DNA of 26,864 nucleotides, from assembly GCA_022844165.1 (NCBI GenBank), contig JALHMH010000051.1, positions 1-26,864 on the forward strand, read 5' to 3'. The position numbers and the translations under genes were made by a program. This stretch comes from Lysobacterales bacterium (GTDB lineage: Bacteria; Pseudomonadota; Gammaproteobacteria; Xanthomonadales; SZUA-5). Of this stretch, positions 759 to 23,761 are shown in pieces; the first letter of the stretch is position 1, and every line of letters starts with the position of its first letter. Below the pieces are notes generated by a model. That model was not told where the DNA came from, made no database searches, and worked only from the letters and a program-made list of their open reading frames with translations.

Positions 759-1031
759 TTATTCGAATCCGTCCCGGAAGATATCCGGCCCCGCATCGCA
801 GGCGCCATTCGCCGCTTTGGCCGCATCGCTGGATGTCAGCCGTGCGTCCAGGCGAAAGCGGCCGCCGGACAGTGCCGGATCGCCGCGCTTCAGGTCAGCC
901 CGCATCGCGAAGCGCCCGTCCGCGCTGGTACGGTCGGCCACCAGTTCGCCGCTGCCGCTGAAACGCGGCGTCTCGCCGGCCAGGGTCGGCAGCGGCACGG
1001 TCAGCACCAGTGCCATCGTCAGGATGCGCAT
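759..1031 (-). CDS. Small secreted protein (90 aa) ending in DIFRDGFE; probable partner of the S74 fibre
   Basis: The likely start is ATG 1031 (MRILTMALVLTVPLPTLAG, signal-peptide-like), 1 nt after the upstream stop. It has two internal S-x-(D/G)-G-R-F strands and ends ...GACDAGPDIFRDGFE*. Confidence 0.85.
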   Translation of the reverse strand: MRILTMALVLTVPLPTLAGETPRFSGSGELVADRTSADGRFAMRADLKRGDPALSGGRFRLDARLTSSDAAKAANGACDAGPDIFRDGFE

Positions 1032-1032
1032 C

Positions 1033-2703
1033 TTAGTGCTCCCGCTTAGCTTCGAGCGCCGCGAGACGCGCCGCCAATTGCTGCAACTGCGCCTGCAGAG
1101 CAGCGTTTTCGGCTTCGAGTTTCTGGTTGAGGCCCTGGATGGCCGCCAAGGCCACGCCGTCGGCGTCCACGGTGGAGATCGTGGTGTCGTTCTCGCCGAC
1201 GCCGAAGGCTGCCGCGAAGTCCTGCGCCATCGGGCCGATGTGCTGCACGTCGCCTGGTTGGCCGATGTAGCGCCACTGCTGGATCGGCATCGCGACCAGG
1301 CGCTCCAGCACATCCAGCGGCAGGATCGACTGGATGTCGGTCTTGAGGTTGCGGTCGGACAGCGTCGACCAGGCGCCCGCGCCGATCGCCAGTTGCACGC
1401 CCTGCGCGAGGTTGGCCGGATTGGAGCGCACGATCACGCTGCCGTCGCCACGGATGCTGAGGTGCTCAAAGAAACTGCCGCTGTTGTTGCGGTGCGCAAT
1501 GCGCAAATCGGCGTCGTTGGATCCGGCACCGCCCTTGCCGACGCCTAACTCGACCCGTTCGCCGGTGTTGCCGTTGAGCGATGGTTTCGGGATCAGTCCG
1601 AGCTCGACGTAGCCCTCATCCGGCGTATTGCCGAAGATGCTGAACTCGAAACCGCCATTGGCATTGGGTGGCGTGCCGTTGACGCCAACCCCGCCTTCGC
1701 TGCGAAGCAGAAACTGGTTAGGACCGGTGCTGACCAGGGCCTCGCCGATCGCGTCGCCCCACACGAAGGTACCCTCATCGCCATTACTGTCGCCCGACGT
1801 GGCATTGGTAATCGAACACAACTCGCCTCCGGTGCCGGGTCGCGCGGCAACACGATAGCCCGCTGCCCACGAAAAGCGCCCGCCGGCGCAGGCCTCTGCA
1901 CCGCCGGACGCCGTCGCTCCGACACCGATGGCCTTGTTCATCTCGCCACCGGACACCGTGGCGCTCTGCCCGATCGCGCGGTTCGCGCTGCCGCCGGCGA
2001 CCGTGCTGAATTGGCCGCGCGCGAGATTGGCGATGCCGCCGCCGACGGTTGCCGAGATCCCCGCAGCGGGAATCAGCGTGGAATCGCCCGCTACATTGTT
2101 GATGCCACCGGCGATGGTGCTGCCGTTGGACCAGGCACGCTGCCCCGAGCCGCCGCCGATGCTAATTGCACTCGATCCGAAAGCGGCCTGCACGTCGTAC
2201 CCGGCGGTCCAGTTGATCCCCAGACCGTTACGCTGCAGACGTGCGCCGATCAGGTTGTCCGCGCGGAACAGTAGCGGCTGCGCATCGATCGTCCCGACGA
2301 AGTCCGTCGCCGGATTGGTCCCCGCGTTGCCCTGCGTATCCCAGCACACGCCCGCCAAGGTCGTTTTGGCACGAAAGTCCTGTGGCTCGCCGAGCGCGAC
2401 GAAGCCACTGCCGCCCTGGGCCACCTCGGTCTTCAGCTTCACGGTGCCGAGCTGGCCGAGGTCGACGCCGAAATCGACATCCACCGCGAAAGCGCCATCC
2501 TTGACCTCGACGCCGCTGAGGGTCAGCGGATAAGCCAGCGCCTGGACGCCGCCGGCATCGAGCACGCTGAGGCGGATGTCGTAGCGGCCGTTGGCCGGCG
2601 CGCCGCCGTCGTGAAGTGTGCCGCGATAGGTCCACGGTGCCGCCTGTGCACCAGATGCGGCGAGGAGCAGGCTGAGGGCGATACGGCGGGCGAGCAAGGG
2701 CAT
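1033..2703 (-). CDS. Secreted trimeric fibre/adhesin with C-terminal peptidase S74 intramolecular chaperone domain
   Basis: Signal peptide (…ASGAQA|AP); N-terminal WTYRGTLxDGGxPANGRYD domain; 14-residue (S/A)TVxGGxxNxAxG beta-roll repeats; S74 motif WSTLSDRNLK…HIGPMAQDF…GVALAAIQGL followed by a coiled coil. Confidence 0.92.
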   Translation of the reverse strand: MPLLARRIALSLLLAASGAQAAPWTYRGTLHDGGAPANGRYDIRLSVLDAGGVQALAYPLTLSGVEVKDGAFAVDVDFGVDLGQLGTVKLKTEVAQGGSGFVALGEPQDFRAKTTLAGVCWDTQGNAGTNPATDFVGTIDAQPLLFRADNLIGARLQRNGLGINWTAGYDVQAAFGSSAISIGGGSGQRAWSNGSTIAGGINNVAGDSTLIPAAGISATVGGGIANLARGQFSTVAGGSANRAIGQSATVSGGEMNKAIGVGATASGGAEACAGGRFSWAAGYRVAARPGTGGELCSITNATSGDSNGDEGTFVWGDAIGEALVSTGPNQFLLRSEGGVGVNGTPPNANGGFEFSIFGNTPDEGYVELGLIPKPSLNGNTGERVELGVGKGGAGSNDADLRIAHRNNSGSFFEHLSIRGDGSVIVRSNPANLAQGVQLAIGAGAWSTLSDRNLKTDIQSILPLDVLERLVAMPIQQWRYIGQPGDVQHIGPMAQDFAAAFGVGENDTTISTVDADGVALAAIQGLNQKLEAENAALQAQLQQLAARLAALEAKREH

Positions 2704-2758
2704 GACGGACTCCGTGATGTGGTAGCGGCCGTCGGGAACACCGGCGGTTCACCCCACA

Positions 2759-2820
2759 TACGTAGTCCGCCGGCAAAACCGGCAGTTTTTCGCCAGCGAC
2801 CGAATCGGGGATAACCGGCA
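2759..2820 (-). promoter_or_regulatory. Two tandem TGCCGG-N16-CG(C/T)W putative ECF promoter sites
   Basis: TGCCGG(2820-2815)-N16-CGCT(2798-2795) and TGCCGG(2784-2779)-N16-CGTA(2762-2759), both on the minus strand upstream of ATG 2703. Confidence 0.5.
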
Positions 2821-2843
2821 ACAGACGGATATCGTCGCCGCGA

Positions 2844-3869
2844 TCACTCGCTCACTGCTTGGCCGTCTTCCAGATTGAGCGCCCATTGGCTGATGGCCTT
2901 CGCCACTGCCGGATCGCTGTCGCTGTCCAGGGCCATCGACTGCATCGGCGGTAGATCGGGCGGTGCGACTTTGTAGAAGTGCGTGAGCGTGGGAAACTCG
3001 GCCAGCCTGGTCGGCGCATCTCCCCGTGCGGCTTTCAACTGCGCCGCATGGGAAGCGGGCACCGAAGCATCGCGGCCGCCTTGCACGATCAGCACCGGCT
3101 GGCGGACCGCGCGCAATGCCGCCATCGGGTCGACCGCATCGACACTGCGCAGATAGCGATGCGCATTGGCGCCCATCGAGGCGAGCATGCCGCTATGCGG
3201 ATCGGAGGCAGCGGCTTCCGGCGGACGCTCCCCGGCCCGGATCGCGGCGATGGTCGCGTCGAGCACCGCAAAATCGGTTGCAACGCCCGGCGGCATCATC
3301 TGCCGCATCTGGTCGCGCATCAGATCGAGGAGAACTTGTGCCGGGCCCGACAGGCTGACCACGCCCTCGATGAGTTCGCCGCTCGGCGAGCTTGCGAGCA
3401 GCGACGCCACCAGCGCTCCCTCGCTGTGCCCGGCGACGAGGAGCGGTCTGGCGGTCGTCTGTTCCTGGAGCAACGCCAGTCCTGCGGCCGCCACCTCGAC
3501 GCGCATGCCAAACTCCACGTGGCGTTGCGCTTCTGCCGGGTCCAGCGTGCGAGAGCCGGTGCCCGGCCCGACCTTGGCCATCCTCAACACCACGAATCCT
3601 TCGTCGCCCAATTGACGCGCCAGATCGGCATACAGGTGCGGGCGCAGGTTCATGGCAGGGTAGTTGCCGTCGACATCGCTGTAGAGCGATCCCGGCAACA
3701 GCAATAGCGCGCCCCTGGGCTTTCGCTGAGGTTGCGTCAAGCGGCACGGAATCTCGATTCCCGACACGGTCACGGTCAGATCTTTATCCCGGGTTGTGGC
3801 GTTGGCGGATTGAACAAACATGGTGAGGATTCCCATCAGGACGAGAGCAAAACAGCGGCGGCGAGTCAT
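2844..3869 (-). CDS. Secreted alpha/beta-fold serine hydrolase (341 aa)
   Basis: Start ATG 3869 overlaps the MerR stop (ATGA). Signal peptide MTRRRCFALVLMGILTMFVQSANA; oxyanion region LLLPGS; nucleophile GHSEG; QGGRD Asp; LTHF His. Confidence 0.9.
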   Translation of the reverse strand: MTRRRCFALVLMGILTMFVQSANATTRDKDLTVTVSGIEIPCRLTQPQRKPRGALLLLPGSLYSDVDGNYPAMNLRPHLYADLARQLGDEGFVVLRMAKVGPGTGSRTLDPAEAQRHVEFGMRVEVAAAGLALLQEQTTARPLLVAGHSEGALVASLLASSPSGELIEGVVSLSGPAQVLLDLMRDQMRQMMPPGVATDFAVLDATIAAIRAGERPPEAAASDPHSGMLASMGANAHRYLRSVDAVDPMAALRAVRQPVLIVQGGRDASVPASHAAQLKAARGDAPTRLAEFPTLTHFYKVAPPDLPPMQSMALDSDSDPAVAKAISQWALNLEDGQAVSE

Positions 3870-4633
3870 GGCTCGGTCTCCGGCAGTTGTCGCGCGTAAC
3901 CGGCCATCGCCGCGGCCAGAAATTCGGCCAGTCGCGGATGCAAGGCGTCGTACATGGCGCGGAAGTCGGCGTGTTCGACATACATCTGGCCCAGCGCTGC
4001 GTAGCGCGGCCCGTTTGGCGTCCAGGAGCGGGAGACCCAACCGTGATGGCGCGCTGCCAGACGCTGCGCCGCGACCGATGACGGCGAACCGCCGGCGTCG
4101 ATCAGCTCGATAAAGGCCTGATGGATGGCGTCGATCTCGGCTTTGAAATCAGCCAGCTCGCCAGCCGACCAGCTTTGCATGCGGCGTTGCGATTCGTCGA
4201 CGGTTGCCCTGGCCGATTCGCCATAACGCGCGATCAGCTCGGCTTCCCATTGCGCTTGCTTCTCTGCCGATATGCCGACGTAAAGATGCTCGCCATCGAC
4301 CGCGCGCCCGGCGTCAATGCAGGCAAGGGTCTCGTCGATGGTCCGCGCCAACGCCTGGCGGCGTGCGATATCGCTGGCTACCCGAGAACGCAGATCACGC
4401 AGCGCGGCGCGCACATCGTAGCCGGGGTCGTCGAGGATGCGCGCGATGTCGACCAGGGCAACGCCGAGTTCCCGATAAAAGAGGATCTGCTGCAAACGCA
4501 ACAGCTCGCGCTCGCCGTAATAGCGGTAGCCATTGCCGCCGGTGGGCGGGCTCAATAAGCCGATGTGGTCGTAATGATGCAGTGCCCGAACGCTCACGCC
4601 AGACAGCTCGGCCACCTGTTTCACGGTTTTCAC
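3866..4633 (-). CDS. MerR-family regulator with TipAS-like ligand-binding domain (255 aa)
   Basis: GTG 4633 follows a GGAGAG RBS. HTH region VKQVAELSGVSVRALHHYDHIGLL…GYRYY…LQQILFYRELG; C-terminal TipAS-like region HHGWVSRSW…LGQMYVEHADFRAMYD…LAEFLAAAM. Confidence 0.93.
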   Translation of the reverse strand: MKTVKQVAELSGVSVRALHHYDHIGLLSPPTGGNGYRYYGERELLRLQQILFYRELGVALVDIARILDDPGYDVRAALRDLRSRVASDIARRQALARTIDETLACIDAGRAVDGEHLYVGISAEKQAQWEAELIARYGESARATVDESQRRMQSWSAGELADFKAEIDAIHQAFIELIDAGGSPSSVAAQRLAARHHGWVSRSWTPNGPRYAALGQMYVEHADFRAMYDALHPRLAEFLAAAMAGYARQLPETEP

Positions 4634-4661
4634 GCGACACTCTCCATGGGTGCTGGCGTGC

Positions 4662-4692
4662 AGTGTGCGGCCTGACGTTGGGTCAGGGTCAA
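4662..4692 (-). promoter_or_regulatory. MerR-type promoter/operator: TTGACC-N19-CACACT with dyad CCTGAC-N5-GTCAGG
   Basis: -35 at 4692-4687 and -10 at 4667-4662 give a 19-bp spacer, with the inverted repeat at 4671-4676/4682-4687. This is the hallmark architecture of TipA/Mta-type promoters. Confidence 0.85.
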
Positions 4693-4970
4693 GCGGTGCG
4701 CGGCGCCTGCCGTCGATCGCTGGATAGAGTTCGCGGTAACGAGCCACCATGTGAGCGCTCACGATCGGGGCGGCGCAACCATTGCTCAGTTGGATCGGAA
4801 CGCTCCTGGACCGGCACGCCAATCTCGCGAACGCGTCCACCGAGCTCGCTGCTGGATTCAACACGATCGCCCAGGAGCACGACGCCGTTCCAGCCGTCCA
4901 CGCGGGCTATTCCGCCGATCAGCAATGTGCAGAGCAGGGCCCCGCGGAGCCCACGTCGCCGCGCGCTCAT
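4689..4970 (-). CDS. Possible small exported hypothetical protein (93 aa)
   Basis: MSARRRGLRGALLCTLLIGG looks like a signal peptide, but no domain is recognisable and the stop overlaps the MerR -35 box. Confidence 0.3.
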   Translation of the reverse strand: MSARRRGLRGALLCTLLIGGIARVDGWNGVVLLGDRVESSSELGGRVREIGVPVQERSDPTEQWLRRPDRERSHGGSLPRTLSSDRRQAPRTA

Positions 4971-5235
4971 ACGATCAATTCCATTTCGTCTGCAATCCCA
5001 GCAAGTCCACGGTGGGCTCGACGCGCGCCGTGTCCAGCGCGGTCCACAAGACACCCGACAAGCCATCGAACTGGCCCATGCTCACGGCTTGTTCGGAGAG
5101 CCGCGGCCACGCCCTGCGCCACGCGTGATACGCGCGCCTGGCACAGGCATCGAATGGCGCGACGTCCCGATGACGACGCCACATCGCCGGCTCCGCCGAA
5201 CGATGCGACTCGAATAAGGCGAGCGATCAAGACGC

Positions 5236-6399
5236 TTAGACGCGGACCATGCCTTCCATCAACACGCGCGCACTGCGGCTCATCAGGGCTTTGGTGACGG
5301 TCCAAACGCCGTTCGCGAACCGTGCCTTGGCGCCAACGCGGAGTGTGCCCGACGGGTGCCCAAAGCGCACCGCTTCGCGCGCGCCGCCGCCCGCCGCGAG
5401 GTTGACAAGTGTGCCGGGCACGGCCGCGGCGGTGCCGATGGCGACGGCGCAGGTGCCCATCATCGCGTGATGTAATTTGCCCATCGACAACGCGCGCACG
5501 CATAAATCGATTTCGCCAGCAGCGACGTTTTTGCCGCTCGATGCGATATAGCTTTGCGCCGGCGCCACGTAGGCAACTTTCGGCGTATGTTGCCGCGCGC
5601 CGGCTTCGCTGGCGTATTGGATCAAGCCCATTGCCAGGGCGCCCGCCGTTCGAATCGCCTCGAAAGCGGCGAGGCGGCCGGAATCGTCATTGATCTGAGC
5701 CTGTAACTCAACGCCAGTCAATCCAATCTCTTGGGCATTGACGAAAACCGTTGGTATGCCGGCATTGATCAGCGTAGCGTTGAACGTTCCCAGCCCCGGC
5801 ACATCGAGGCGGTCGACCAGATTTCCGGTGGGGAACATCGCGCCCTCGCCGTCGTCCGCGGGCTCCATAAACTCGAGTGCTATCTCCGCAGCGGGGAAGG
5901 TCACGCCATCGAGTTCGAAGTCGCCCGTCTCCTGCACTGCGCCATCGCTCATCGGCACATGCGCAACGATGGTCTTGCCGATGTTCGCCTGCCAGATGCG
6001 CACGGTGCAAAGGCCGTCGTGCGGCACGCGTGTAGGATCGATCAAACCCTGAGCGATGGCGAATGGCCCCACGGCAGCGCTCAGGTTGCCGCAGTTGCCG
6101 CTCCAGTCGACGACCGCCTGGTCGATGGCCACCTGGCCAAACAAGTAATCGACATCGTGATCGGGTCGAGTGCTGCTGCTCACCAGCACCGCTTTGCTGG
6201 TGCTCGACGTGCCATTGCCCATGCCGTCGATCTGTTTGCCATAGGGATCGGGACTGCCAACCACGCGCAACCACAGCGCGTCGCGAGCCGGCCCAGGCAC
6301 ACGCGCGGCTTCGGGCAGATCGGCGAGCCTGAAGAAGACGCCTTTGCTCGTGCCGCCGCGCATGTAGGTGGCTGGAATCCGGACTTGGGGTGGGTGCAT
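5236..6399 (-). CDS. prpF: 2-methylaconitate cis-trans isomerase PrpF
   Basis: Motifs IPATYMRGGTSKGVFF, GSPDPYGKQIDGMG, DWSGNCGNLSAAVG, LSMGKLHHAMMGT and MSRSARVLMEG. Confidence 0.97.
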   Translation of the reverse strand: MHPPQVRIPATYMRGGTSKGVFFRLADLPEAARVPGPARDALWLRVVGSPDPYGKQIDGMGNGTSSTSKAVLVSSSTRPDHDVDYLFGQVAIDQAVVDWSGNCGNLSAAVGPFAIAQGLIDPTRVPHDGLCTVRIWQANIGKTIVAHVPMSDGAVQETGDFELDGVTFPAAEIALEFMEPADDGEGAMFPTGNLVDRLDVPGLGTFNATLINAGIPTVFVNAQEIGLTGVELQAQINDDSGRLAAFEAIRTAGALAMGLIQYASEAGARQHTPKVAYVAPAQSYIASSGKNVAAGEIDLCVRALSMGKLHHAMMGTCAVAIGTAAAVPGTLVNLAAGGGAREAVRFGHPSGTLRVGAKARFANGVWTVTKALMSRSARVLMEGMVRV

Positions 6400-6595
6400 G
6401 GCGACGTGTTGGTGGCACGGACTGGGCGCCGATTATGACGCCGCGCGCAAGCGTGCGCCGAACATTGCGAGAAATTGCAGTGTGCGAGATCCAGGGACCG
6501 CTAACGAATGACGCATTGCGAGGCGAACGCTGACTGTTTGGCGCTTTTGCCCACAAGCCTCTACCATGCGCGCACCCGACTCGGAGAGCCAAGTG

Positions 6596-7372
6596 ATGCG
6601 CAGCAAAGCGGAAATCGTCAGCAACTGGTTGCCCCGCTACACCGGTGTCCCTGTTGAGGAGTTGGGCGCGTTCGTGCTGCTGACCAACTTTGGTGGTTAT
6701 CTCAATTTTTTTGCCGAACGAACGGGTGCGCCACTCAAGGGTCTGGATCGCCCGATGCCTAGCGCAACCTTCGATGGCATCACCATGATCAATTTTGGTA
6801 TGGGCAGTGCTAATGCGGCCACGATCATGGACCTTCTGAGCGCGATCAGGCCGCGTGCCGTGTTGTTTTTGGGCAAGTGCGGCGGTTTGAAGCGCAAGAA
6901 CCAGCTGGGCGATCTGGTGTTGCCGATCGCAGCGATCCGCGGCGAAGGAACGTCGAACGACTACCTGCTGCCCGAAGTGCCCGCGCTACCGGCATTCAGT
7001 CTGCAACGCGCGGTGTCGACCATGATCCGCGACCTGGGACACGACTATTGGACCGGTACGGTCTATACGACCAATCGTCGCGTCTGGGAACACGATGACG
7101 ACTTCAAAGAATATCTGCGCAAAACACGTTCGATGGCCATTGATATGGAAACCGCCACGATCTTTGCCACCGGCTTCGCCAACAGCATTCCCGCGGGTGC
7201 ACTTTTGCTGGTCAGCGATCAGCCGATGGTCCCGGAAGGCGTCAAAACCGAAGCATCGGATCGCACGATCACCGAGAACTTCGTTGCCCGCCATATCGAG
7301 ATCGGCATCGAAGCCCTGAAGCTCATCCGGCGCGATGGAAAGAGCGTCAAACACCTGCGTTTCGACGAGTAG
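6596..7372 (+). CDS. amn: AMP nucleosidase (short, PNP/UDP phosphorylase fold)
   Basis: Motifs MRSKAEIVSNWLPRYTG, INFGMGSANAATIMDLL, FLGKCGG, AIRGEGTS, TTNRRVWEHD and IDMETAT. A GGAGAG RBS precedes ATG 6596. Confidence 0.9.
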   Translation: MRSKAEIVSNWLPRYTGVPVEELGAFVLLTNFGGYLNFFAERTGAPLKGLDRPMPSATFDGITMINFGMGSANAATIMDLLSAIRPRAVLFLGKCGGLKRKNQLGDLVLPIAAIRGEGTSNDYLLPEVPALPAFSLQRAVSTMIRDLGHDYWTGTVYTTNRRVWEHDDDFKEYLRKTRSMAIDMETATIFATGFANSIPAGALLLVSDQPMVPEGVKTEASDRTITENFVARHIEIGIEALKLIRRDGKSVKHLRFDE

Positions 7373-7373
7373 C

Positions 7374-8744
7374 TCAGGCTGCTGCGCGCACTGCGTTCTC
7401 TGCGGCGAGCGTGCAGACGTCGCCGACCAGCAGCAACGCCGGCGCACCGCTCAACTGGGCGCACAACTGAACCAAATCTCTGAGCGCGCCGCGCCACACA
7501 CGTTGTGCGGGCAGGCTGACGTTTTCGATCACGGCAATCGGCATCGACAATGCCACACCGGCACGCGCGAAGGCTGAGGCCAGTTCCGTCGCGCGCTGCG
7601 TGCCCATGTACACCGCCAAGGTTTCATCGCGGCGCATCTGCAATAGCTCGAAAGGTGTGATCCCGGTTTCGCTGTGCGCGGTCACAAAGCGCACACTGCG
7701 GGCGACACGTCGATGCGTCAACGGTATGCCTGCTGCGGCCGCGCACGCGAATGCGGCGCTGATGCCCGGAATGACCTCGACGTCGATGCCCGCGGCGCGC
7801 AACGCCAGCAATTCTTCGCCGCCACGTGCGAAGGTCAGCGCATCGCCGCCTTTGAGTCTCACCACCTGCTGCCCGGCACGTGCTGCCGTGAGCAGTTGTT
7901 CGATGATCGCCGGTTGGCTGGCGCTCGGTCGTCCACAGCGTTTGCCGACATCGACGATCTGGGCGTCGGCGCGTGCAAACTTCAACACTTCCGCACCGAC
8001 CAGGCGATCGTGAAACACAATGTCAGCGTCGCCCAACGCGCGGAGCGCCGCCAGCGTCAGCAGATTCGGATCGCCAGGGCCGGCGCCGACCAGGACCACG
8101 CGACCGCGTCGCTGCGAGTTGATCAGCAACGCGTCGAGCGCCGCCTCGGCTGCCGATTCGTCGCCACGGCGCAGCGCCGCGACAACGCTGCCGCTGGCCG
8201 CCGCGTGGTAAACCGCTCGGCGCGCGCGCGCATCTGGCTGCGCATCGCGGATCGACTTCAGGCGTCGATCGAACAGTGCGAGCAGCCGATCGAGCGCCGG
8301 ATCCAGCCACGCTTCAAGCCGCGCACGCAGCCAGCTGGCCAGCGCTGGCGCAACCCCACTGGTGGCGATTGCAATCTGCAGCAAACCGCGTTCGATGACC
8401 GCCGGCAGCACCGCGCTCGACAGTGCAGGGTCGTCGACAACGTTCACCGGCGTCGAGCGTAAACGAGCGGCCAGCGCGATCTCGCGGTTGACGTGGCGAT
8501 CACCCGTGGCCGCGACAATGAGACGCACATCGACTGCGTCGCTGGCGACAAACGCCCGCCGATGCACCACGACGTTCGGTTGCGCCGCCAGTGCGCTAAC
8601 CGCTTCGCCAACCTCGATCGCGACAATCGTCACCCGCGCTCGCGCGCGAATCAAACGCAGCAGTTTGCGCGCCGCGACATGACCGGCGCCGACCAGCAAC
8701 ACAGGCTGATCGACCAGATCGAGTCCAACAGGGTAGTAGCGCAT
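7374..8744 (-). CDS. cysG: Siroheme synthase (precorrin-2 dehydrogenase/ferrochelatase plus uroporphyrinogen-III methyltransferase)
   Basis: Likely start MRYYPVGLDL at 8744. Motifs VGAGHVAARK, VNVVDDP, VGAGPGDPNLLT, RLKGGD and IPGISAA…GIPLTHR. Confidence 0.93.
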   Translation of the reverse strand: MRYYPVGLDLVDQPVLLVGAGHVAARKLLRLIRARARVTIVAIEVGEAVSALAAQPNVVVHRRAFVASDAVDVRLIVAATGDRHVNREIALAARLRSTPVNVVDDPALSSAVLPAVIERGLLQIAIATSGVAPALASWLRARLEAWLDPALDRLLALFDRRLKSIRDAQPDARARRAVYHAAASGSVVAALRRGDESAAEAALDALLINSQRRGRVVLVGAGPGDPNLLTLAALRALGDADIVFHDRLVGAEVLKFARADAQIVDVGKRCGRPSASQPAIIEQLLTAARAGQQVVRLKGGDALTFARGGEELLALRAAGIDVEVIPGISAAFACAAAAGIPLTHRRVARSVRFVTAHSETGITPFELLQMRRDETLAVYMGTQRATELASAFARAGVALSMPIAVIENVSLPAQRVWRGALRDLVQLCAQLSGAPALLLVGDVCTLAAENAVRAAA

Positions 8745-8894
8745 GGCAATAAGCTCGTTTTGGCCGAGCTCATCGTCGCTGTAGCGCCGAAGAAGGGGAA
8801 ATGGCGAGCGGCTTGGCGGATATGCCTGCGTGGCATGTCGCCCACTCAGTCGGACCGGAACAGCGGTCAACTGAGGTTTTCAGGTCAATCGAAC

Positions 8895-8923
8895 CAGACC
8901 CGGCGCGATGCGCGCCGGGTCTG
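8895..8923. terminator. 13-bp perfect hairpin just downstream of katG
   Basis: CAGACCCGGCGCG-ATG-CGCGCCGGGTCTG lies 9 nt after the katG stop. There is no clear U-tract, so it may be a stabilising or attenuating stem rather than a strong terminator. Confidence 0.55.
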
Positions 8924-8932
8924 ACGGTTGGC

Positions 8933-11152
<2,220 letters not shown>

Positions 11153-19418: not shown

Positions 19419-22193
19419 CTAGGCGTCCGCCATCCGCGCCTGCAGACGGAGCAGACGGGCGCGTACATACGGCTCGGCTGCGGGCAACAGGTCGATCCGA
19501 AGCTGCACGCTGTCCGCACCCCGACGCGCGGCAGGCACATCGCCTCGTTGCCACGCGAGCTCCGCCAGCGCCAACTGCGCATCGCGCCAAGCGTCCATCA
19601 AGTCCGGGTGGCGATCAAGTTCGGGCAACAGACGCGCCAGATTCGCCTGTGCGACCTTGGTTTCGCCGGCCATCGACTGCGCAACCGCCAGGCGTGTTTC
19701 GATACGCAACTTCACCGTTGTGGTCTCGCCGCCCGATCGATCCAGGTTCTCTTGCAACAGCGCAATCGCCGCGAGGGGATCGCCTCGCCACAGCGCAATT
19801 TCGGCGGCGTCCCGAAGCGCCTGCCTCAGAGAAAAAGCTTGCCGCTCATCGGCACGCAACGCTTGCAGCTCTTCGGCGCATGGCGCGTCGACGCCGGATT
19901 TGCCGAGCAATGTACGAACGTTCTCCAGCCGGCAGCGCAACGCCTGTACGCCGGGCGCCTGCGCGCCCAAAAGCGTACTCGCGCCTTCGAGTGCCGTCCG
20001 CAAATGCTCGGCGGCTGCTGCATAGTCCCCCGCTGCCCGCTCAAATGTGGCCAACACGCTGAGCATCGAATACAGTTGCGGCGACGCTTCACCAAAGCGC
20101 GTCTTTGCCACACGCAATGCCCGCTCACCGCTGTCGACGGCCTCGCGCGAGGCACCGCGCCGATACTGGGTATAGGCCAGCATGCTCAACCAGTCCTGTA
20201 GTCGCCAATGCGTCGCTGGCAGCGTGCCTTCCCCGATATCTACCGCTGCGCGCGCATATCGTTCGGCTTCTTCGTGCCGGCCCATGTGCGCATACGTACC
20301 CGCAAGCCCGCCCTGCGCATCCGCGATCAGTACATGTGTCGGTCCCAGCAGTTCGATACCGCGCGTGATCGCCCGCTCAAATGCGGCAACACTGGCCGCA
20401 TAAATCGTCTCTCGCTGTTGCTGCGAACCGAGCATGCGCTGGCGCTGCGTGCCCGCAAACCACACCAGTGTTTGCACTTCGACCATCGGCGGACAGGCGC
20501 CGTTGCTGCAGGCAGCCACCGCCTGAGCTGCGGCAGCCGTTGCCTCTGGATAGCGCAGCTGCTGAGCCGCGCGCTCCGATTGGAGCATGCGACGTTCCGC
20601 ATCGAGGTCCGCTGCGAGCGACGCCTTTTCCAGCGTCACCAGCAGCGCATCCAAAGCCGCATACTGCTGTTGTTCCAGCAGCACCCGTCCGAGTTCCAGT
20701 TGCGCGCGGTGCCGTTGCTCGGGCGCCAGAGCATCGCCACCCTGCTGCGCCAGCAGTTCGTTGAGCAACTCCGTGGATCGCGATGTCTGGCCCTGCCCTG
20801 CCAGTACGCCTGCCAGTTCCACCAGCAGATCGTCGCGGATCGCCGGCCGCACGGAGCGATCGTTTCGCAACTGGAGAATGGCGCTTTCGGTCACCTCGAC
20901 AAGCGTCGTAGGCCGTTCGGCGCTGACGGGTTCGGCGGCGCGGAACACGCTAACCAGGACTTCCCGCGTGCGTTCTGCCCGATCGGCTTCCTGGCCCGCT
21001 TGCAGCGCACTGCGCCACGCCAATACCATCAGGCCGATCACAGCAATCAGTGCGACGGAAGCGATCGTAGCGGCAGCGAAGTTGCGTTGTACGAATCGCC
21101 TCAGTAAGTAGCCCAACGTCGGCGCGCGTGCCGACACCGGTTGGTGAGCGAGGTAACGCCGCAGATCGTCGCCGAAGGCTTCCGCCGAGCCGTAGCGCTG
21201 CAGCGCCTGCTCGGCCATTGCCTTGAGCGAAATGTTGTCCAGATCGCCGCGCAACTGACGGCGCAAATCGGATAAGGACTCGGGGATGCCCGCAGCCTCA
21301 ACAGCCTCGTCCAACAAACGGCTGGGGGCCACGATCGCGCCGGCAGGCCGCGAACCGGTGAGCACTTCGCACAGGAGTACACCCATCGAATACACATCTG
21401 TCGCGGTTGTGATGATGCCGCCAGCGAGCTGCTCCGGCGCTGCGTACGCAGGCGTCAGCGCTCGATCCTGGGTGGTTGTGGCATCGGCGGTATCGCCGAG
21501 ATTCTTGGCGATTCCGAAGTCGAGCAACTTGACATGGCCTTCGGCCGTGACCAGGACGTTGGCTGGCTTCAAATCGCGATGTGCGATCAGCGCCCGGTGC
21601 GCTGCCGCTACCGCATCGCTCACTTCTGCCATCAACCGAACGCGATCGCGCAAAGTGGCTCGCCGCTCGCGCAGGTAATCGGTGATGCGGATGCCCGAGA
21701 CGCGCTCCATGACGATGTAGGCGATGCCGTCTTCCGTACTTCCGCCATCGATGTAGCGCGCAATCGATGGATGCGTCAGCAATGCCAAATGTTGCCGTTC
21801 GCTATCGAAGCGTCGCCGTTCAACGGCGCCCATCAAGATTCGTTTGAAGATCTTCACGGCCACGGGTTGGCGCACGCCGCCCTGCTCGCGCTCAGCGCCG
21901 AAGACCATCGAACTGCCACCTTCGCCCAACACCTCGCCTAGCGTGAATCCGCCGATCTGGCGTCCCAACCACGAACCGGACACTAAACTGTTCTTCGGTG
22001 CCAGGCGCGCTGCCACCTCATCGACCCGACTGGCAAGCAAATCGACCGATATCGTTTCGCTGGCCAACAACATCTTGACGAGGCGCTCGCGCTGGCCTGC
22101 ATCCGTCGCCGCCCGTTCGGCGAACGGCATGCGCTCGGCGGCAGGCAGTGCCATGGCGGTTTCAAACAATTCTCTTAGCGTGGCGGCGCTCAC
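19419..22193 (-). CDS. Membrane Ser/Thr kinase with extracytoplasmic TPR region (PknS-like)
   Basis: Motifs LGEGGSSMVF, VAVK, HRDLKPANVL, LLDFGIAK, LTPAYAAPEQ and DVYSMG; TM segment AAATIASVALIAVIGLMVLAW; then TPR repeats. The GTG start lies 4 nt after the ECF stop. Confidence 0.96.
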   Translation of the reverse strand: MSAATLRELFETAMALPAAERMPFAERAATDAGQRERLVKMLLASETISVDLLASRVDEVAARLAPKNSLVSGSWLGRQIGGFTLGEVLGEGGSSMVFGAEREQGGVRQPVAVKIFKRILMGAVERRRFDSERQHLALLTHPSIARYIDGGSTEDGIAYIVMERVSGIRITDYLRERRATLRDRVRLMAEVSDAVAAAHRALIAHRDLKPANVLVTAEGHVKLLDFGIAKNLGDTADATTTQDRALTPAYAAPEQLAGGIITTATDVYSMGVLLCEVLTGSRPAGAIVAPSRLLDEAVEAAGIPESLSDLRRQLRGDLDNISLKAMAEQALQRYGSAEAFGDDLRRYLAHQPVSARAPTLGYLLRRFVQRNFAAATIASVALIAVIGLMVLAWRSALQAGQEADRAERTREVLVSVFRAAEPVSAERPTTLVEVTESAILQLRNDRSVRPAIRDDLLVELAGVLAGQGQTSRSTELLNELLAQQGGDALAPEQRHRAQLELGRVLLEQQQYAALDALLVTLEKASLAADLDAERRMLQSERAAQQLRYPEATAAAAQAVAACSNGACPPMVEVQTLVWFAGTQRQRMLGSQQQRETIYAASVAAFERAITRGIELLGPTHVLIADAQGGLAGTYAHMGRHEEAERYARAAVDIGEGTLPATHWRLQDWLSMLAYTQYRRGASREAVDSGERALRVAKTRFGEASPQLYSMLSVLATFERAAGDYAAAAEHLRTALEGASTLLGAQAPGVQALRCRLENVRTLLGKSGVDAPCAEELQALRADERQAFSLRQALRDAAEIALWRGDPLAAIALLQENLDRSGGETTTVKLRIETRLAVAQSMAGETKVAQANLARLLPELDRHPDLMDAWRDAQLALAELAWQRGDVPAARRGADSVQLRIDLLPAAEPYVRARLLRLQARMADA

Positions 22194-22197
22194 GCCG

Positions 22198-22740
22198 TCA
22201 CTTCTGCAGGAGCGCAGCCAGATAGGCGCGCGCGAATTCCCAATCGCGGGTAATGGTGCGCCGATTGAGATTCATCACGGCGGCGATCTGATCGACAGTG
22301 AGTCCTGCGAAGTAACGCAACTCGACCACGCGTGCGGCACGCGGATCTTCCTGCGCTAGTTTGTCCAGCCCGTCGTTAAGTTCGAGCACATCAAGCGCCA
22401 GTTCATTGGCGGCTGCATCCTGCCCATGGTCCGAGATCGTCACTCGCACCCAGTCCCCGCCGGCCTTTTGTGCCAATCGCATGCGCGCGCGATCGGTGAC
22501 GATATTGCGCATCGCCGTCGCCGCGTAGGCAAAAAAATTCTCAGGGCCACCATGCTCGCCCCAATCTCGGGACGCCATTTTTTCGTAAAGCTCGTGCACC
22601 AGTCCGGTCGTGTTCAACGTCGCATGCCCGTCGCGCGCCAACTGCGAACTGGCCATGCTCTTTAGTCGATCGTAAACTTCGACAAAGAGCGACTGGGTGG
22701 ATTCGGGCATACCAGCCGGTATCGGCGGCGAAGCGGACAT
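22198..22740 (-). CDS. Kinase-associated ECF sigma factor (TIGR02999 / EcfK-like)
   Basis: Motifs VYDRLKSMA, TLNTTGLVHELY, FFAYAATAMRNIVTDRAR…KAGG and VVELRYFAGLT…RTITRDWEFARAYL. The start is 22740 or 22710. Confidence 0.95.
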   Translation of the reverse strand: MSASPPIPAGMPESTQSLFVEVYDRLKSMASSQLARDGHATLNTTGLVHELYEKMASRDWGEHGGPENFFAYAATAMRNIVTDRARMRLAQKAGGDWVRVTISDHGQDAAANELALDVLELNDGLDKLAQEDPRAARVVELRYFAGLTVDQIAAVMNLNRRTITRDWEFARAYLAALLQK

Positions 22741-22873
22741 TCGAGAGTGCGGCAGTTGAGCCAGGCTTCCATGATGGCACACTCGGCGCCAACGCAAACG
22801 GGCCATCGCGCTCAACTGGCGCCGACGGACGGCGACGGGTGGCACGTCGACTCTGAATCGCATCTTCAGCGCC

Positions 22874-23761
22874 TCAAGGTTCTGGTCGTTGATCAGCCTC
22901 TGCAACGTTAGTGATGTGCGCGGCCACGCATAACCAACGGCCGTCTGGGTATTTGTGCCAGACGTCCGTATAGCGCGAGATACCGCGGCGGCCATCCTTG
23001 CGTTCGAATGCATTCTCGGCGTGGATCAGTGCAACGTCGTCGAAGCGACGAATGCGAATGCCCGCGACCGGGAACGAGCGATAGTGAGTCTTGAAATTGG
23101 GTTTGGCGAAGTCCGCCAGCGCCGCCGCCCGATCGTGAAACGAGCCGTCTCCATAGACCACCGAATATTCCGGTGCCAGGTGCGCGTCATACCAGGCAAC
23201 ATCCGATTCGCGGAAGGCGCGCACATAGTTCTCGTTGAGCTCGCGAAGCACGACGTCATCGTCGCCTCGTAAGCGTTCTCCCGCCCACGTGTCGATGGCA
23301 AATTCGTGGCCTTCTCGCTGCGCTTGTTCGACGTGCGTACGCAGGGCGGTGTTTTGCGCATAGATCAGCCGCCAGTGCACACCGTCCCAATGGTAAGCGT
23401 CAGTGTAACGAACTCGCGCCAGCTCATCGGCTCGTGTGGCGCCCTCAAAGTAGCCTTGGACGAGTGCAACATCACCGAATAACCGTACACGGACATCGTC
23501 GTACGAAACTCCATACGGCGCGGAGGCGCGCAGCATCTGATGCAAATGCTGTTTGCGATCAACGTATGCGCCGGTGGCACTGAGCAGAAGGAAGTCATCG
23601 GCCATCAGCGCGTCCATGAAGTTGCTGTCGCCAACGGCAAAGGCGTTAACGTAGCGATGGTTGATCGCACGCAACTGAGCTTGGGCTACGTCGGTTTTTG
23701 GGACTGGCGCGACGCCGAGCGTTGTGACGAAGGCCAGGCTGAGGAAGGTGGCTAGCGGCAT
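22874..23761 (-). CDS. Exported protein with two tandem NTF2/SnoaL-like (DUF4440) domains
   Basis: Internal duplication LRAINHRYVNAF…VRLFGDVALV…RYTDAY and LRELNENYVRAF…IRRFDDVALI…RYTDVW; N-terminal signal peptide. Confidence 0.88.
   Translation of the reverse strand: MPLATFLSLAFVTTLGVAPVPKTDVAQAQLRAINHRYVNAFAVGDSNFMDALMADDFLLLSATGAYVDRKQHLHQMLRASAPYGVSYDDVRVRLFGDVALVQGYFEGATRADELARVRYTDAYHWDGVHWRLIYAQNTALRTHVEQAQREGHEFAIDTWAGERLRGDDDVVLRELNENYVRAFRESDVAWYDAHLAPEYSVVYGDGSFHDRAAALADFAKPNFKTHYRSFPVAGIRIRRFDDVALIHAENAFERKDGRRGISRYTDVWHKYPDGRWLCVAAHITNVAEADQRPEP

Follow-up and report, generated by a model that had tools for sequence, protein, structure and literature searches.

A small exported protein encoded beside an S74-terminated fibre is a candidate surface-sorting adaptor in a Lysobacterales bacterium

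The window analysed here is the whole of contig C51 (26,864 nt; JALHMH010000051.1) from the 59-contig, 4.68-Mb genome of a Lysobacterales bacterium. Its subject is a pair of adjoining genes: a fibre gene (1033-2703(-), encoding an exported protein of 556 aa) with a C-terminal Peptidase S74 chaperone domain, and a partner gene (759-1031(-), encoding an exported protein of 90 aa) that lies 1 nt behind the fibre stop codon and ends in a short C-terminal tag. On the sequence evidence set out below we favour, with modest confidence, the reading that these genes make a two-part surface fibre, in which the partner would dock on the N-terminal region of the fibre and give it an anchoring or sorting tail in trans. 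The fibre would be exported by Sec and would trimerise via its S74 chaperone, which should then cleave itself off, as its intact SDxxxK motif suggests. The partner would be exported separately, its three-repeat beta module would dock on the N-terminal domain of the fibre (N-domain) or on the linker behind it, and the docking would possibly be locked by a disulfide to which the covariation of cysteines in the two proteins points. The partner tail would then hand the fibre to whatever recognises the tag, leading to surface retention or passage. The repeat module itself appears to be ancient and portable, occurring in other phyla beside N-domain proteins and with other lineage-specific tails.

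The fibre and its partner

The two genes comprise the following features, listed in the direction of transcription, with the source of each assignment in brackets.

2641..2703 (-): fibre signal peptide, residues 1-21, ...SGAQA then AP (direct reading of the translation)
2359..2640 (-): fibre N-terminal beta-sandwich domain, residues 22-115, 'TYRGTLHDGGAPANGRYD...' (AlphaFold2 (AF2) model)
2344..2346 (-): Cys120, in the low-confidence linker behind the N-domain, 'AGVCWDT' (cysteine counts)
1414..2328 (-): stalk/head of UspA1/YadA-head-like repeats, residues 126-430 (Pfam, PDB)
1342-1359 (-): SDRNLK (Ser449...Lys454), the SDxxxK Ser-Lys dyad, residues 449-454 (motif position)
1204..1359 (-): Peptidase S74 intramolecular chaperone domain (Pfam PF13884; placed by genome search at C51:1204-1359)
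1033..1203 (-): rest of the chaperone, coiled-coil-like tail and stop codon (1033-1035) (translation; weak HALZ and M-repeat matches)
1029..1035 (-): gene junction with a 1-nt gap, TAA (1035-1033), G (1032), ATG (1031-1029) (sequence)
975..1031 (-): partner signal peptide, residues 1-19, MRILTMALVLTVPLPTLAG (direct reading of the translation)
834..968 (-): three xRFxLxAxL repeats, PRFSGSGELVA, GRFAMRADLKR and GGRFRLDARLT, predicted beta-strands (alignment A1, AF2)
798..800 (-): Cys78, the sole cysteine of the mature partner, invariant in A1 (alignment A1)
759..785 (-): C-terminal tag DIFRDGFE (762-785) and stop codon (759-761) (alignment A1)

The original prediction described a Sec-exported fibre with an intact S74 Ser-Lys motif, and both features are present. 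The N-terminus of the fibre (MPLLARRIALSLLLAASGAQA, then AP) resembles a Sec signal peptide on direct reading of the translation, and Pfam PF13884 Peptidase_S74 matches residues 449-500 (E 5.2e-11, 43.1 bits, cut-off 22), starting at the serine of SDRNLK; in a genome-wide search the same domain scores 47.3 bits. S74 domains trimerise their passenger and then cut themselves off, and with such self-cleavage the fibre could not be held on the cell via its C-terminus. Neither this fibre nor the second S74 fibre of the genome carries the FxNGFE tag at its C-terminus, and a Pfam search at E <= 1, which returned S74, UspA1_rep, HALZ and M, detected no YadA-like C-terminal membrane anchor on the window fibre.

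Between its two ends the fibre was originally said to contain 'beta-roll' repeats. Repeats are indeed there, but they are of the UspA1/YadA-head type: they match Pfam UspA1_rep (27.9 bits, cut-off 27), the UspA1 structure 3pr7 in the PDB matches residues 219-283 (E 1.5e-8), and RTX-type repeats are ruled out. Two further cysteines of the fibre, 272 and 296, could pair mutually.

The N-terminal segment, which reads 'APWTYRGTLHDGGAPANGRYD...', belongs to no Pfam, NCBIfam or PHROG family. Its AF2 model is a beta-sandwich, whose first 90 residues have a predicted local distance difference test score (pLDDT) of 81-94 (87 at residues 81-90), with a predicted template modelling score of 0.70; the cysteine-bearing linker behind it is disordered in the model. 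Foldseek returned no PDB match to the model at E <= 0.001 (best E 0.011), and its best VIA Z, 7.2, was obtained against generic immunoglobulin (Ig), fibronectin type III (FN3) and C2 sandwiches, within the background of the tool. A profile of the domain (alignment A4) matches 51,160 representative proteins, 27,188 of them at 1e-10, and in these proteins the domain nearly always starts at residue 25-70, right behind the signal peptide.

The partner is, as first described, a 90-aa protein ending in DIFRDGFE and separated from the fibre by a single nucleotide, with a Shine-Dalgarno-like GGGAG located 7 nt upstream of its ATG within the last fibre codons. Its body consists of three xRF repeats (PRF, GRF, GRF) rather than the two SxxGRF strands initially reported. 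A hydrophobic N-terminus is common to all homologues of the partner (alignments A1 and A5), and in A1 residues R40 and L61 of the repeats and F85, G88, F89 and E90 of the tag are invariant, with R58 almost so. Since 83 homologues were found at E <= 1e-3, every one labelled 'hypothetical', the open reading frame (ORF) is not a chance one. The partner belongs to no Pfam, NCBIfam or PHROG family, and neither of the partners searched has a PHROG match at E <= 0.01. A search of the ESM Atlas returned only clusters of 'hypothetical protein' without names.

The partner gene accompanies the fibre N-domain

Homologues of the window fibre occur in 35 of 39 related genomes, often in several copies and in tandem. 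When local profiles built from these fibre loci were run on 29 fibre-centred loci of relatives (L008-L036), the partner gene adjoined the fibre in 24 of the 25 loci whose fibre has the N-domain, and in none of the four S74 loci without a detectable N-domain. Approached from the opposite side, the partner profile detected 52 genes in 23 of the 39 relatives; all 30 partner-centred loci hold a fibre part, which includes the N-domain in 23 of them, and by their coordinates at least 46 of the 52 partner matches lie within ~2 kb of a fibre match, among the fibre matches listed. All 24 partners in relatives end in the tag or in one of the variants FxNSFE, FADSFE and FADQFE. The co-occurrence for which a neighbourhood survey had been proposed was therefore found with either gene as the starting point.

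Within the genome itself, the partner profiles match only the two ORFs that adjoin its two fibres. The second pair lies on contig C18 (locus L006) in reverse order, with the partner (4295-4564(+)) directly upstream of a 761-aa S74 fibre (about 4602-6887(+)); this partner is also 90 aa long, has three SASYxL repeats, ends in PIFANGFE and belongs to the second partner class (class B, see below). The C18 pair is flanked by two tagged genes, encoding proteins of 523 aa (1778-3349) and 591 aa (7044-8819 (-)). Separately, a candidate third pair was noted on contig C4 (L146), where a 262-aa exported N-domain protein without S74 (8621-9409(+), profile E 3e-14) is followed 12 nt on by a 205-aa exported protein (9421-10038(+)) with degenerate GGxFxLxGG repeats and a DUF11 domain in place of the tag; the latter protein aligns weakly to class B (hhalign probability 25%, E 8e-4).

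Two partner classes with differing C-terminal tails

The partners form two classes. Those of class A, which includes the window partner, have xRFxLxAxL repeats and one cysteine (alignments A1 and A5), and those of class B have GGSYxLxGTIGQ...GGF[HW] repeats (alignment A2). The profiles of the two classes align with an hhalign probability of 97.4% over 71 columns, to which the common tag contributes. Class B comprises 1194 proteins at E <= 1e-3 among the candidates scored, and a scan of species genomes with it detected at least 578 loci, of which the best 80 provide all counts for distant loci given here. They come from Chloroflexota, Planctomycetota, Verrucomicrobiota, Acidobacteriota, Sumerlaeota, Armatimonadota, a deltaproteobacterium and Ahniellaceae.

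At 50 of the 80 distant loci the partner has an N-domain ORF no more than 300 nt away on its own strand (29 upstream, 18 in overlapping open frames, 3 downstream), at five more such an ORF lies farther upstream, and two loci hold no closed small ORF. The fibre-then-partner order seen in the window is the common one in this set. An S74 ORF is present at 24 of the 80 loci, against 56 for the N-domain, so the partner goes with the N-domain, whether S74 is there or not. Thus, while the pairing proposed in the original prediction is conserved, it is not tied to S74, because N-domain proteins that lack this domain also have a partner.

These observations bear on whether the partner could be a tail-fibre-assembly (Tfa/gp38-like) protein that acts on the distal, receptor-binding end of the fibre. 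Phage tfa genes typically sit directly downstream of the fibre gene, which is the slot the partner gene occupies in the window. The S74 domain, however, already supplies the fibre with an intramolecular chaperone, and the N-domain is accompanied by the partner irrespective of how the fibre ends at its C-terminus. Moreover, the partner has its own signal peptide and surface tag, it lacks a PHROG match, and the class-B module had 0 relatives in 2.9 million viral contigs when these were searched with near-identical patterns. We therefore consider a Tfa-like role highly improbable.

The repeat module and the C-terminus behave differently across the family. In class A the tag or an SFE/QFE variant ends 79 of 82 homologues, and in class B it ends 92 of the 120 listed. 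Among 81 partner ORFs from the distant loci, 38, from Chloroflexota, match the pattern of a 14-22-residue tail ending in xYLPLxxR (+0-3), which may be another undescribed C-terminal signal. Eight others, from Verrucomicrobiota, bear an FN3-like domain of ~80 residues that ends in FYRLxxP, at least seven, counted by eye, have a D/N-rich repeat of 60-68 residues ending in C or CP, and three from Sumerlaeota have tails ending in WFLY or WYLY. One class-B homologue (P0198) matches the GC-type dockerin NF041540 (51.8 bits, cut-off 29), a domain that the NCBIfam search did not detect in the window partner. An adaptor whose tail serves the local envelope would be expected to show just this combination of a constant module and C-terminal elements that differ by lineage.

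Cysteine covariation and complex prediction

To the adjacency of the two genes can be added a covariation between their products. All 21 N-domain segments located beside class-A partners contain exactly one cysteine, right behind the domain ('CW'; Cys120 in the window), and all six located beside class-B partners contain none at the linker. In the partners, exactly one cysteine after residue 22 is found in 76 of 93 class-A proteins (Cys78), and none of the six class-B proteins in A2 has any. A single unpaired cysteine in each protein suggests an intermolecular disulfide, and fibre and partner would possibly be joined by a Cys78-Cys120 bond; the covariation may also reflect one single event, inherited through common ancestry.

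When modelled alone with AF2, the partner forms a low-confidence four-strand meander (pLDDT 63; strands 24-32, 41-49, 53-56 and 59-62), a poor solo fold that would be compatible with folding upon binding a partner. Profile searches of the PDB with the N-domain and with class-B partners gave a best E of 0.21. Three N-domains and one mature partner were then modelled together with ESMFold2 in three runs, alongside three controls. The complex scored 0.60 (runs 0.62, 0.60 and 0.57), against 0.15 for the best control, with a contact agreement between runs of at least 66% and a partner pLDDT of at least 57, and the verdict was one of weak support. On comparative grounds, the conserved pair, its tracking of the N-domain and the lineage-confined tag largely bear out the central idea of the original prediction, namely that the partner would bind the N-domain and supply a sorting or anchoring signal in trans; the 3:1 model proposed for it passed the mark, but weakly.

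Several observations weigh against this two-part reading. Of the 157 solved complexes in the ESMFold2 calibration 116 reached the mark, as did 2 of the 215 mismatched pairs; with a score of 0.60 or under it was reached by only 18 of the 157 solved complexes and by both of the passing mismatches. A score of 0.60 lies in a range that the tool rates as likelier to be wrong than right, except where the guess had good prior odds. The disulfide idea needs a 3:3 complex, because a trimer has three Cys120 residues and a 3:1 complex has one Cys78. At one relatives' locus (L031, of a tag-free family) an N-domain fibre has no partner within 1.5 kb, and 23 of the 80 distant loci are without an N-domain ORF, 13 of them with full flanks and 10 with an upstream flank shorter than 1.5 kb. 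The order of the two genes is not constant. In most relatives, among them the one with the closest orthologue (61% identity, L008), the partner precedes the fibre; it follows the fibre in the window and in L010, L024, L025, L027 and L036, and sits between tandem fibres in L011 and L015. For this reason translational coupling is not general. In addition, the loci come from kin, and the fibre-centred and partner-centred sets partly overlap; since kin share features, the adjacency and cysteine counts overstate the number of independent events. Finally, neither of the two candidates for the tag machinery that were profiled over 299 genomes (Peptidase_C25 and Peptidase_C13, described below) is co-distributed with the tag.

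The same data can be read as the work of a transient folding or capping factor, in which case the partner would help three N-domains to assemble and would then leave, and the tag would merely mark it as an exported protein. Three repeats would fit a trimer, the partner alone is poorly folded in the AF2 model, and small genes beside phage fibre genes often encode assembly factors. Against this, the tail is kept on all 24 partners in relatives and is replaced elsewhere by lineage-specific tails, which argues that it matters for the pair. The conserved single cysteine in both proteins also suggests a lasting link, and the partner lacks a PHROG match. A transient factor thus seems rather improbable.

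It could further be argued that the partner is an independent, co-regulated small secreted protein, for example a matrix or lectin-like component, that makes no direct contact with the fibre, given that the gene neighbourhood is the one link that is firmly established and that the complex prediction lends weak support. This is difficult to reconcile with a near-obligate adjacency that extends over several phyla and both gene orders, and with a partner class that co-varies with the N-domain subtype of the fibre and with the cysteines. We regard independence as distinctly improbable.

The tag on exported proteins of the genome and the order

The tag is not confined to the pair. The genome holds 44,225 stop-to-stop ORFs that are 60 aa or longer, and the motif F.[DNS]GFE occurs in them 74 times. 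In 49 cases it stands at the very C-terminus, in 8 it is no more than six residues away, in 2 it is 7-30 residues away and in 15 it lies deeper, compared with 0-1 occurrences at the very C-terminus for each of seven control motifs made by rearranging or changing the same letters. A looser pattern gave 78 ORFs of 59-2327 aa (median 657 aa), nearly all of which show a signal-peptide-like start according to a crude heuristic that picked the start maximising that score. By these counts ΦFx[ND]GFE-COOH appears to end about 57-78 exported proteins of the genome. A Pfam search of 20 of the 78 assigned 14 to a family: esterase, M12 and M28 peptidases, S8 subtilase, glucose/sorbosone dehydrogenase, BNR/sortilin, DUF4394 with Calx-beta, CotH, DUF5650 with Ig-like, beta-helix and DUF5122. 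Judged by these families, the sampled set is one of predicted extracellular or surface proteins. Among the small tagged proteins, a clear leader is seen only in the two whose genes adjoin the S74 fibres.

The distribution of the tag was followed with the DNA pattern F-x-[ND]-G-F-E-stop in 299 genomes of the order (families labelled f1, f2 and so on), in which the window's own genome has 43 matches. The tag is found at tens per genome in seven families (f1, 24/24 genomes; f4, 41/41; f10, 40/40; f9, 14/15; f3, 8/8; f5, 4/4; f6, 2/2) and at none to a few per genome in f2 (2/41), f12 (10/40), f7 (16/41) and f8 (19/41). The reversed pattern, used as a control, gave 0-2 matches per genome, and in 298 genomes from other families of the class no genome had more than 2 tag matches. 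Source labels of the homologues name Rhodanobacteraceae, Lysobacterales or Xanthomonadales bacterium, and Dokdonella sp. FxNGFE-COOH appears, on the strength of these pattern counts, to mark an entire exported proteome in one bacterial order.

A tag of this kind could also belong to an export pilot, or hitch-hiker: the partner would bind the fibre in the periplasm and the tag would be a signal for secretion across the outer membrane, with no lasting anchor needed. This explanation can call on the adjacency and the tag just as the two-part reading does, and it has in its favour that many tag carriers are degradative enzymes, which are expected to be released rather than anchored. Set against it are the occurrence of the module with a dockerin, which is a binding module, and its presence in Chloroflexota and, weakly, in a pilus-tip protein of candidate phyla radiation (CPR) bacteria, where an outer membrane is not, or is less clearly, the barrier to be overcome; nor was a secretion system that tracks the tag found among the candidates profiled (C25 and C13). 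An export pilot is in our judgement unlikely.

Profiling the tag had been suggested as a means of finding a co-distributed secretion or anchoring gene; it brought out the lineage confinement, but both candidates for that gene failed. Peptidase_C25 (gingipain/PorU-like) was rejected, being found in 25 of 41 genomes of f4, 19 of 40 of f10 and 0 of 4 of f5, all tagged families, and in 9 of 41 of f7 and 9 of 40 of f12. It is present in 113 of the 299 genomes of the order, as against 0 of 14 control genomes, and the genome of the window encodes two very large Peptidase_C25 proteins (C10:108826-109872(+) and C11:11038-12063(-), L138 and L139; open frames of 1672 and 1351 aa). Peptidase_C13, considered as a putative asparaginyl endopeptidase that might cut after the conserved N or D, was likewise rejected, as it occurs in 40 of 40 genomes of the tag-poor f12 and in only 2 of 40 and 0 of 8 of the tag-rich f10 and f3. 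This family was also found in 24 of 24 f1 genomes, and its representative here (C17:66074-66502(+), L137) is, by direct reading, a multi-transmembrane protein with a hydrophobic N-terminal half and the His/Cys motifs 'THGSED' and 'SACYSGG'.

The neighbourhood of tagged genes, counted up to two genes away, includes 12 paralogous Ser/Thr kinases of ~900 aa with tetratricopeptide repeat (TPR)-like tails and 5 genes resembling extracytoplasmic function (ECF) sigma factors, and none of the recurrent neighbours is an obvious sorting enzyme. Such neighbours indicate regulation rather than sorting, and they suggest that the tagged exoproteome is under kinase/ECF control.

Surroundings of the pair

The rest of the contig has a cellular gene content, with Pfam matches to MerR/TipAS, PrpF, sirohaem synthase, a catalase-peroxidase, a TonB receptor and Ser/Thr kinases with ECF sigma factors. 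As the original prediction had noted, no phage genes and no autotransporter barrel lie nearby: a Pfam scan of the 18 other ORFs on the 26.9-kb contig detected no phage or autotransporter-barrel family.

Kinase genes of the type described above recur in the window. A kinase-TPR gene (19419-22193(-)) adjoins a Sigma70_ECF gene (22198-23013(-)), and a Ser/Thr kinase gene truncated by the contig end (3-650(-)) stands beside the fibre locus, with its N-terminal 216 aa present (Pkinase). Contig C18 begins within the kinase-like C-terminal part of a gene (L006 2-1687(+)), so that the second fibre locus also abuts a cut kinase. C51 and C18 may be adjacent contigs, or the two breaks may fall in paralogous kinases.

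Relation to known fibres and sorting signals

As far as the accessible text of the paper goes, the mosaic adhesive trimeric (MAT) fibres of Bdellovibrio bacteriovorus (Caulton et al. 2024, PMC10769870) resemble the window fibre in several respects. Both are host-encoded rather than phage-encoded. In each, the signal peptide leads into a beta-rich N-terminal domain that is conserved, a likeness of architecture alone, and the stalk is trimeric. Part of each family ends in S74 with SDxxxK, which that text names as the S74 consensus motif, and in each family S74 and non-S74 members have a common N-domain. The text further describes the MAT N-domain as having no structural homologue, with which the lack of a specific PDB relative for the N-domain studied here agrees, and states that it 'would presumably tightly bind a surface element', as yet unidentified. 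The systems differ in that no small partner gene appears in the accessible text on MAT fibres, where 'operon', 'adjacent gene' and 'small protein' occur 0 times each. The host differs as well, being by its homologue labels a gammaproteobacterium of the Xanthomonadales/Lysobacterales group rather than a Bdellovibrio.

With phage S74 fibres and spikes of the endosialidase type the window fibre has the C-terminal S74 chaperone in common (Pfam), and its distal part matches the phage tail-fibre PHROGs 1980 and 6921. Unlike them it has a Sec signal peptide, its contig holds no phage genes, and its N-domain and partner have no PHROG match. The head repeats are common to trimeric autotransporters such as UspA1 and YadA; the fibre is not one of these, because it lacks a C-terminal YadA-type anchor and ends in S74.

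Among C-terminal signals, LPXTG, PEP-CTERM, GlyGly-CTERM and MYXO-CTERM are, in the sources as far as available, like the tag in standing at the extreme C-terminus of dozens of signal-peptide proteins per genome and in being confined to lineages. Known sorting signals are described in the accessible part of a preprint (Haft, 10.1101/2023.06.07.544157) as tripartite, comprising a motif, a transmembrane helix and an Arg cluster. Compared with these, the FxNGFE tag is 7-8 residues long, has a free terminal Glu and includes no helix or basic cluster, and for this fibre it would act, if at all, in trans through the adaptor. The NCBIfam sorting-domain models gave no match to the partner, and cargo of the type IX secretion system, which has a folded C-terminal domain of ~70-100 aa, was set aside, the conserved element being only 7-8 residues, though no search was aimed at components of that system. 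The tag thus fits no described sorting-signal design.

A distant similarity links class B to PamT, the tip pilin of the CPR Pam pilus, whose role is itself predicted; according to the accessible text of the preprint (PMC13278184), a 'tail fibre-like protein' co-localises with pam operons. PamT is, on the same text, like the partner in being a small exported protein at a filament junction. Over their first ~70 residues, class-B partners give a weak alignment to positions 9-78 of the 241 in the PamT model NF058579 (E 1e-6 to 2e-3), the C18 partner (L006 4295-4564(+)) doing so with E 1e-6 and 28 bits. With 17-28 bits against a cut-off of 240, class-B partners are not members of the PamT family, and the class-A window partner has no match to it. 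One possibility is that PamT combines a fibre adaptor with a pilin domain in a single protein.

From these comparisons a wider proposal can be drawn, which we hold tentatively and consider doubtful as it stands: the module would be a universal adaptor for a very large class of MAT-like fibres, binding their N-domain and connecting them to the anchoring device of each lineage, and FxNGFE-COOH would define a surface-sorting system that is new and non-tripartite, with some 40-75 cargo proteins in each genome. The tails of the adaptor would be FxNGFE in one gammaproteobacterial order, xYLPLxxR in Chloroflexota, a GC-type dockerin in Planctomycetota and an FN3-like domain in Verrucomicrobiota, with perhaps a pilus tip as the device in CPR bacteria.

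The pairing of fibre and partner, conserved across many phyla, is apparently undescribed. Searches of the literature, with most subscription journals outside their reach, returned no description of the FxNGFE tag or of the partner, and within that reach the strings FADGFE, FRNGFE and FRDGFE occurred 0 times and FANGFE matched Chinese words.

The outcome is wider than the idea from which the analysis started, since a single candidate adhesin pair has become a putative pan-phylum fibre-plus-adaptor module and a C-terminal tag that appears to be order-wide. The always-adjacent small partner with its swappable tail is a testable candidate for the missing surface element of the MAT N-domain, as that element is described in the accessible text of PMC10769870, and this candidate applies to an N-domain family of tens of thousands of members. 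The phylogenetic profile of FxNGFE-COOH offers a direct handle on its machinery, and in these organisms the tag and the adaptor could both serve surface display.

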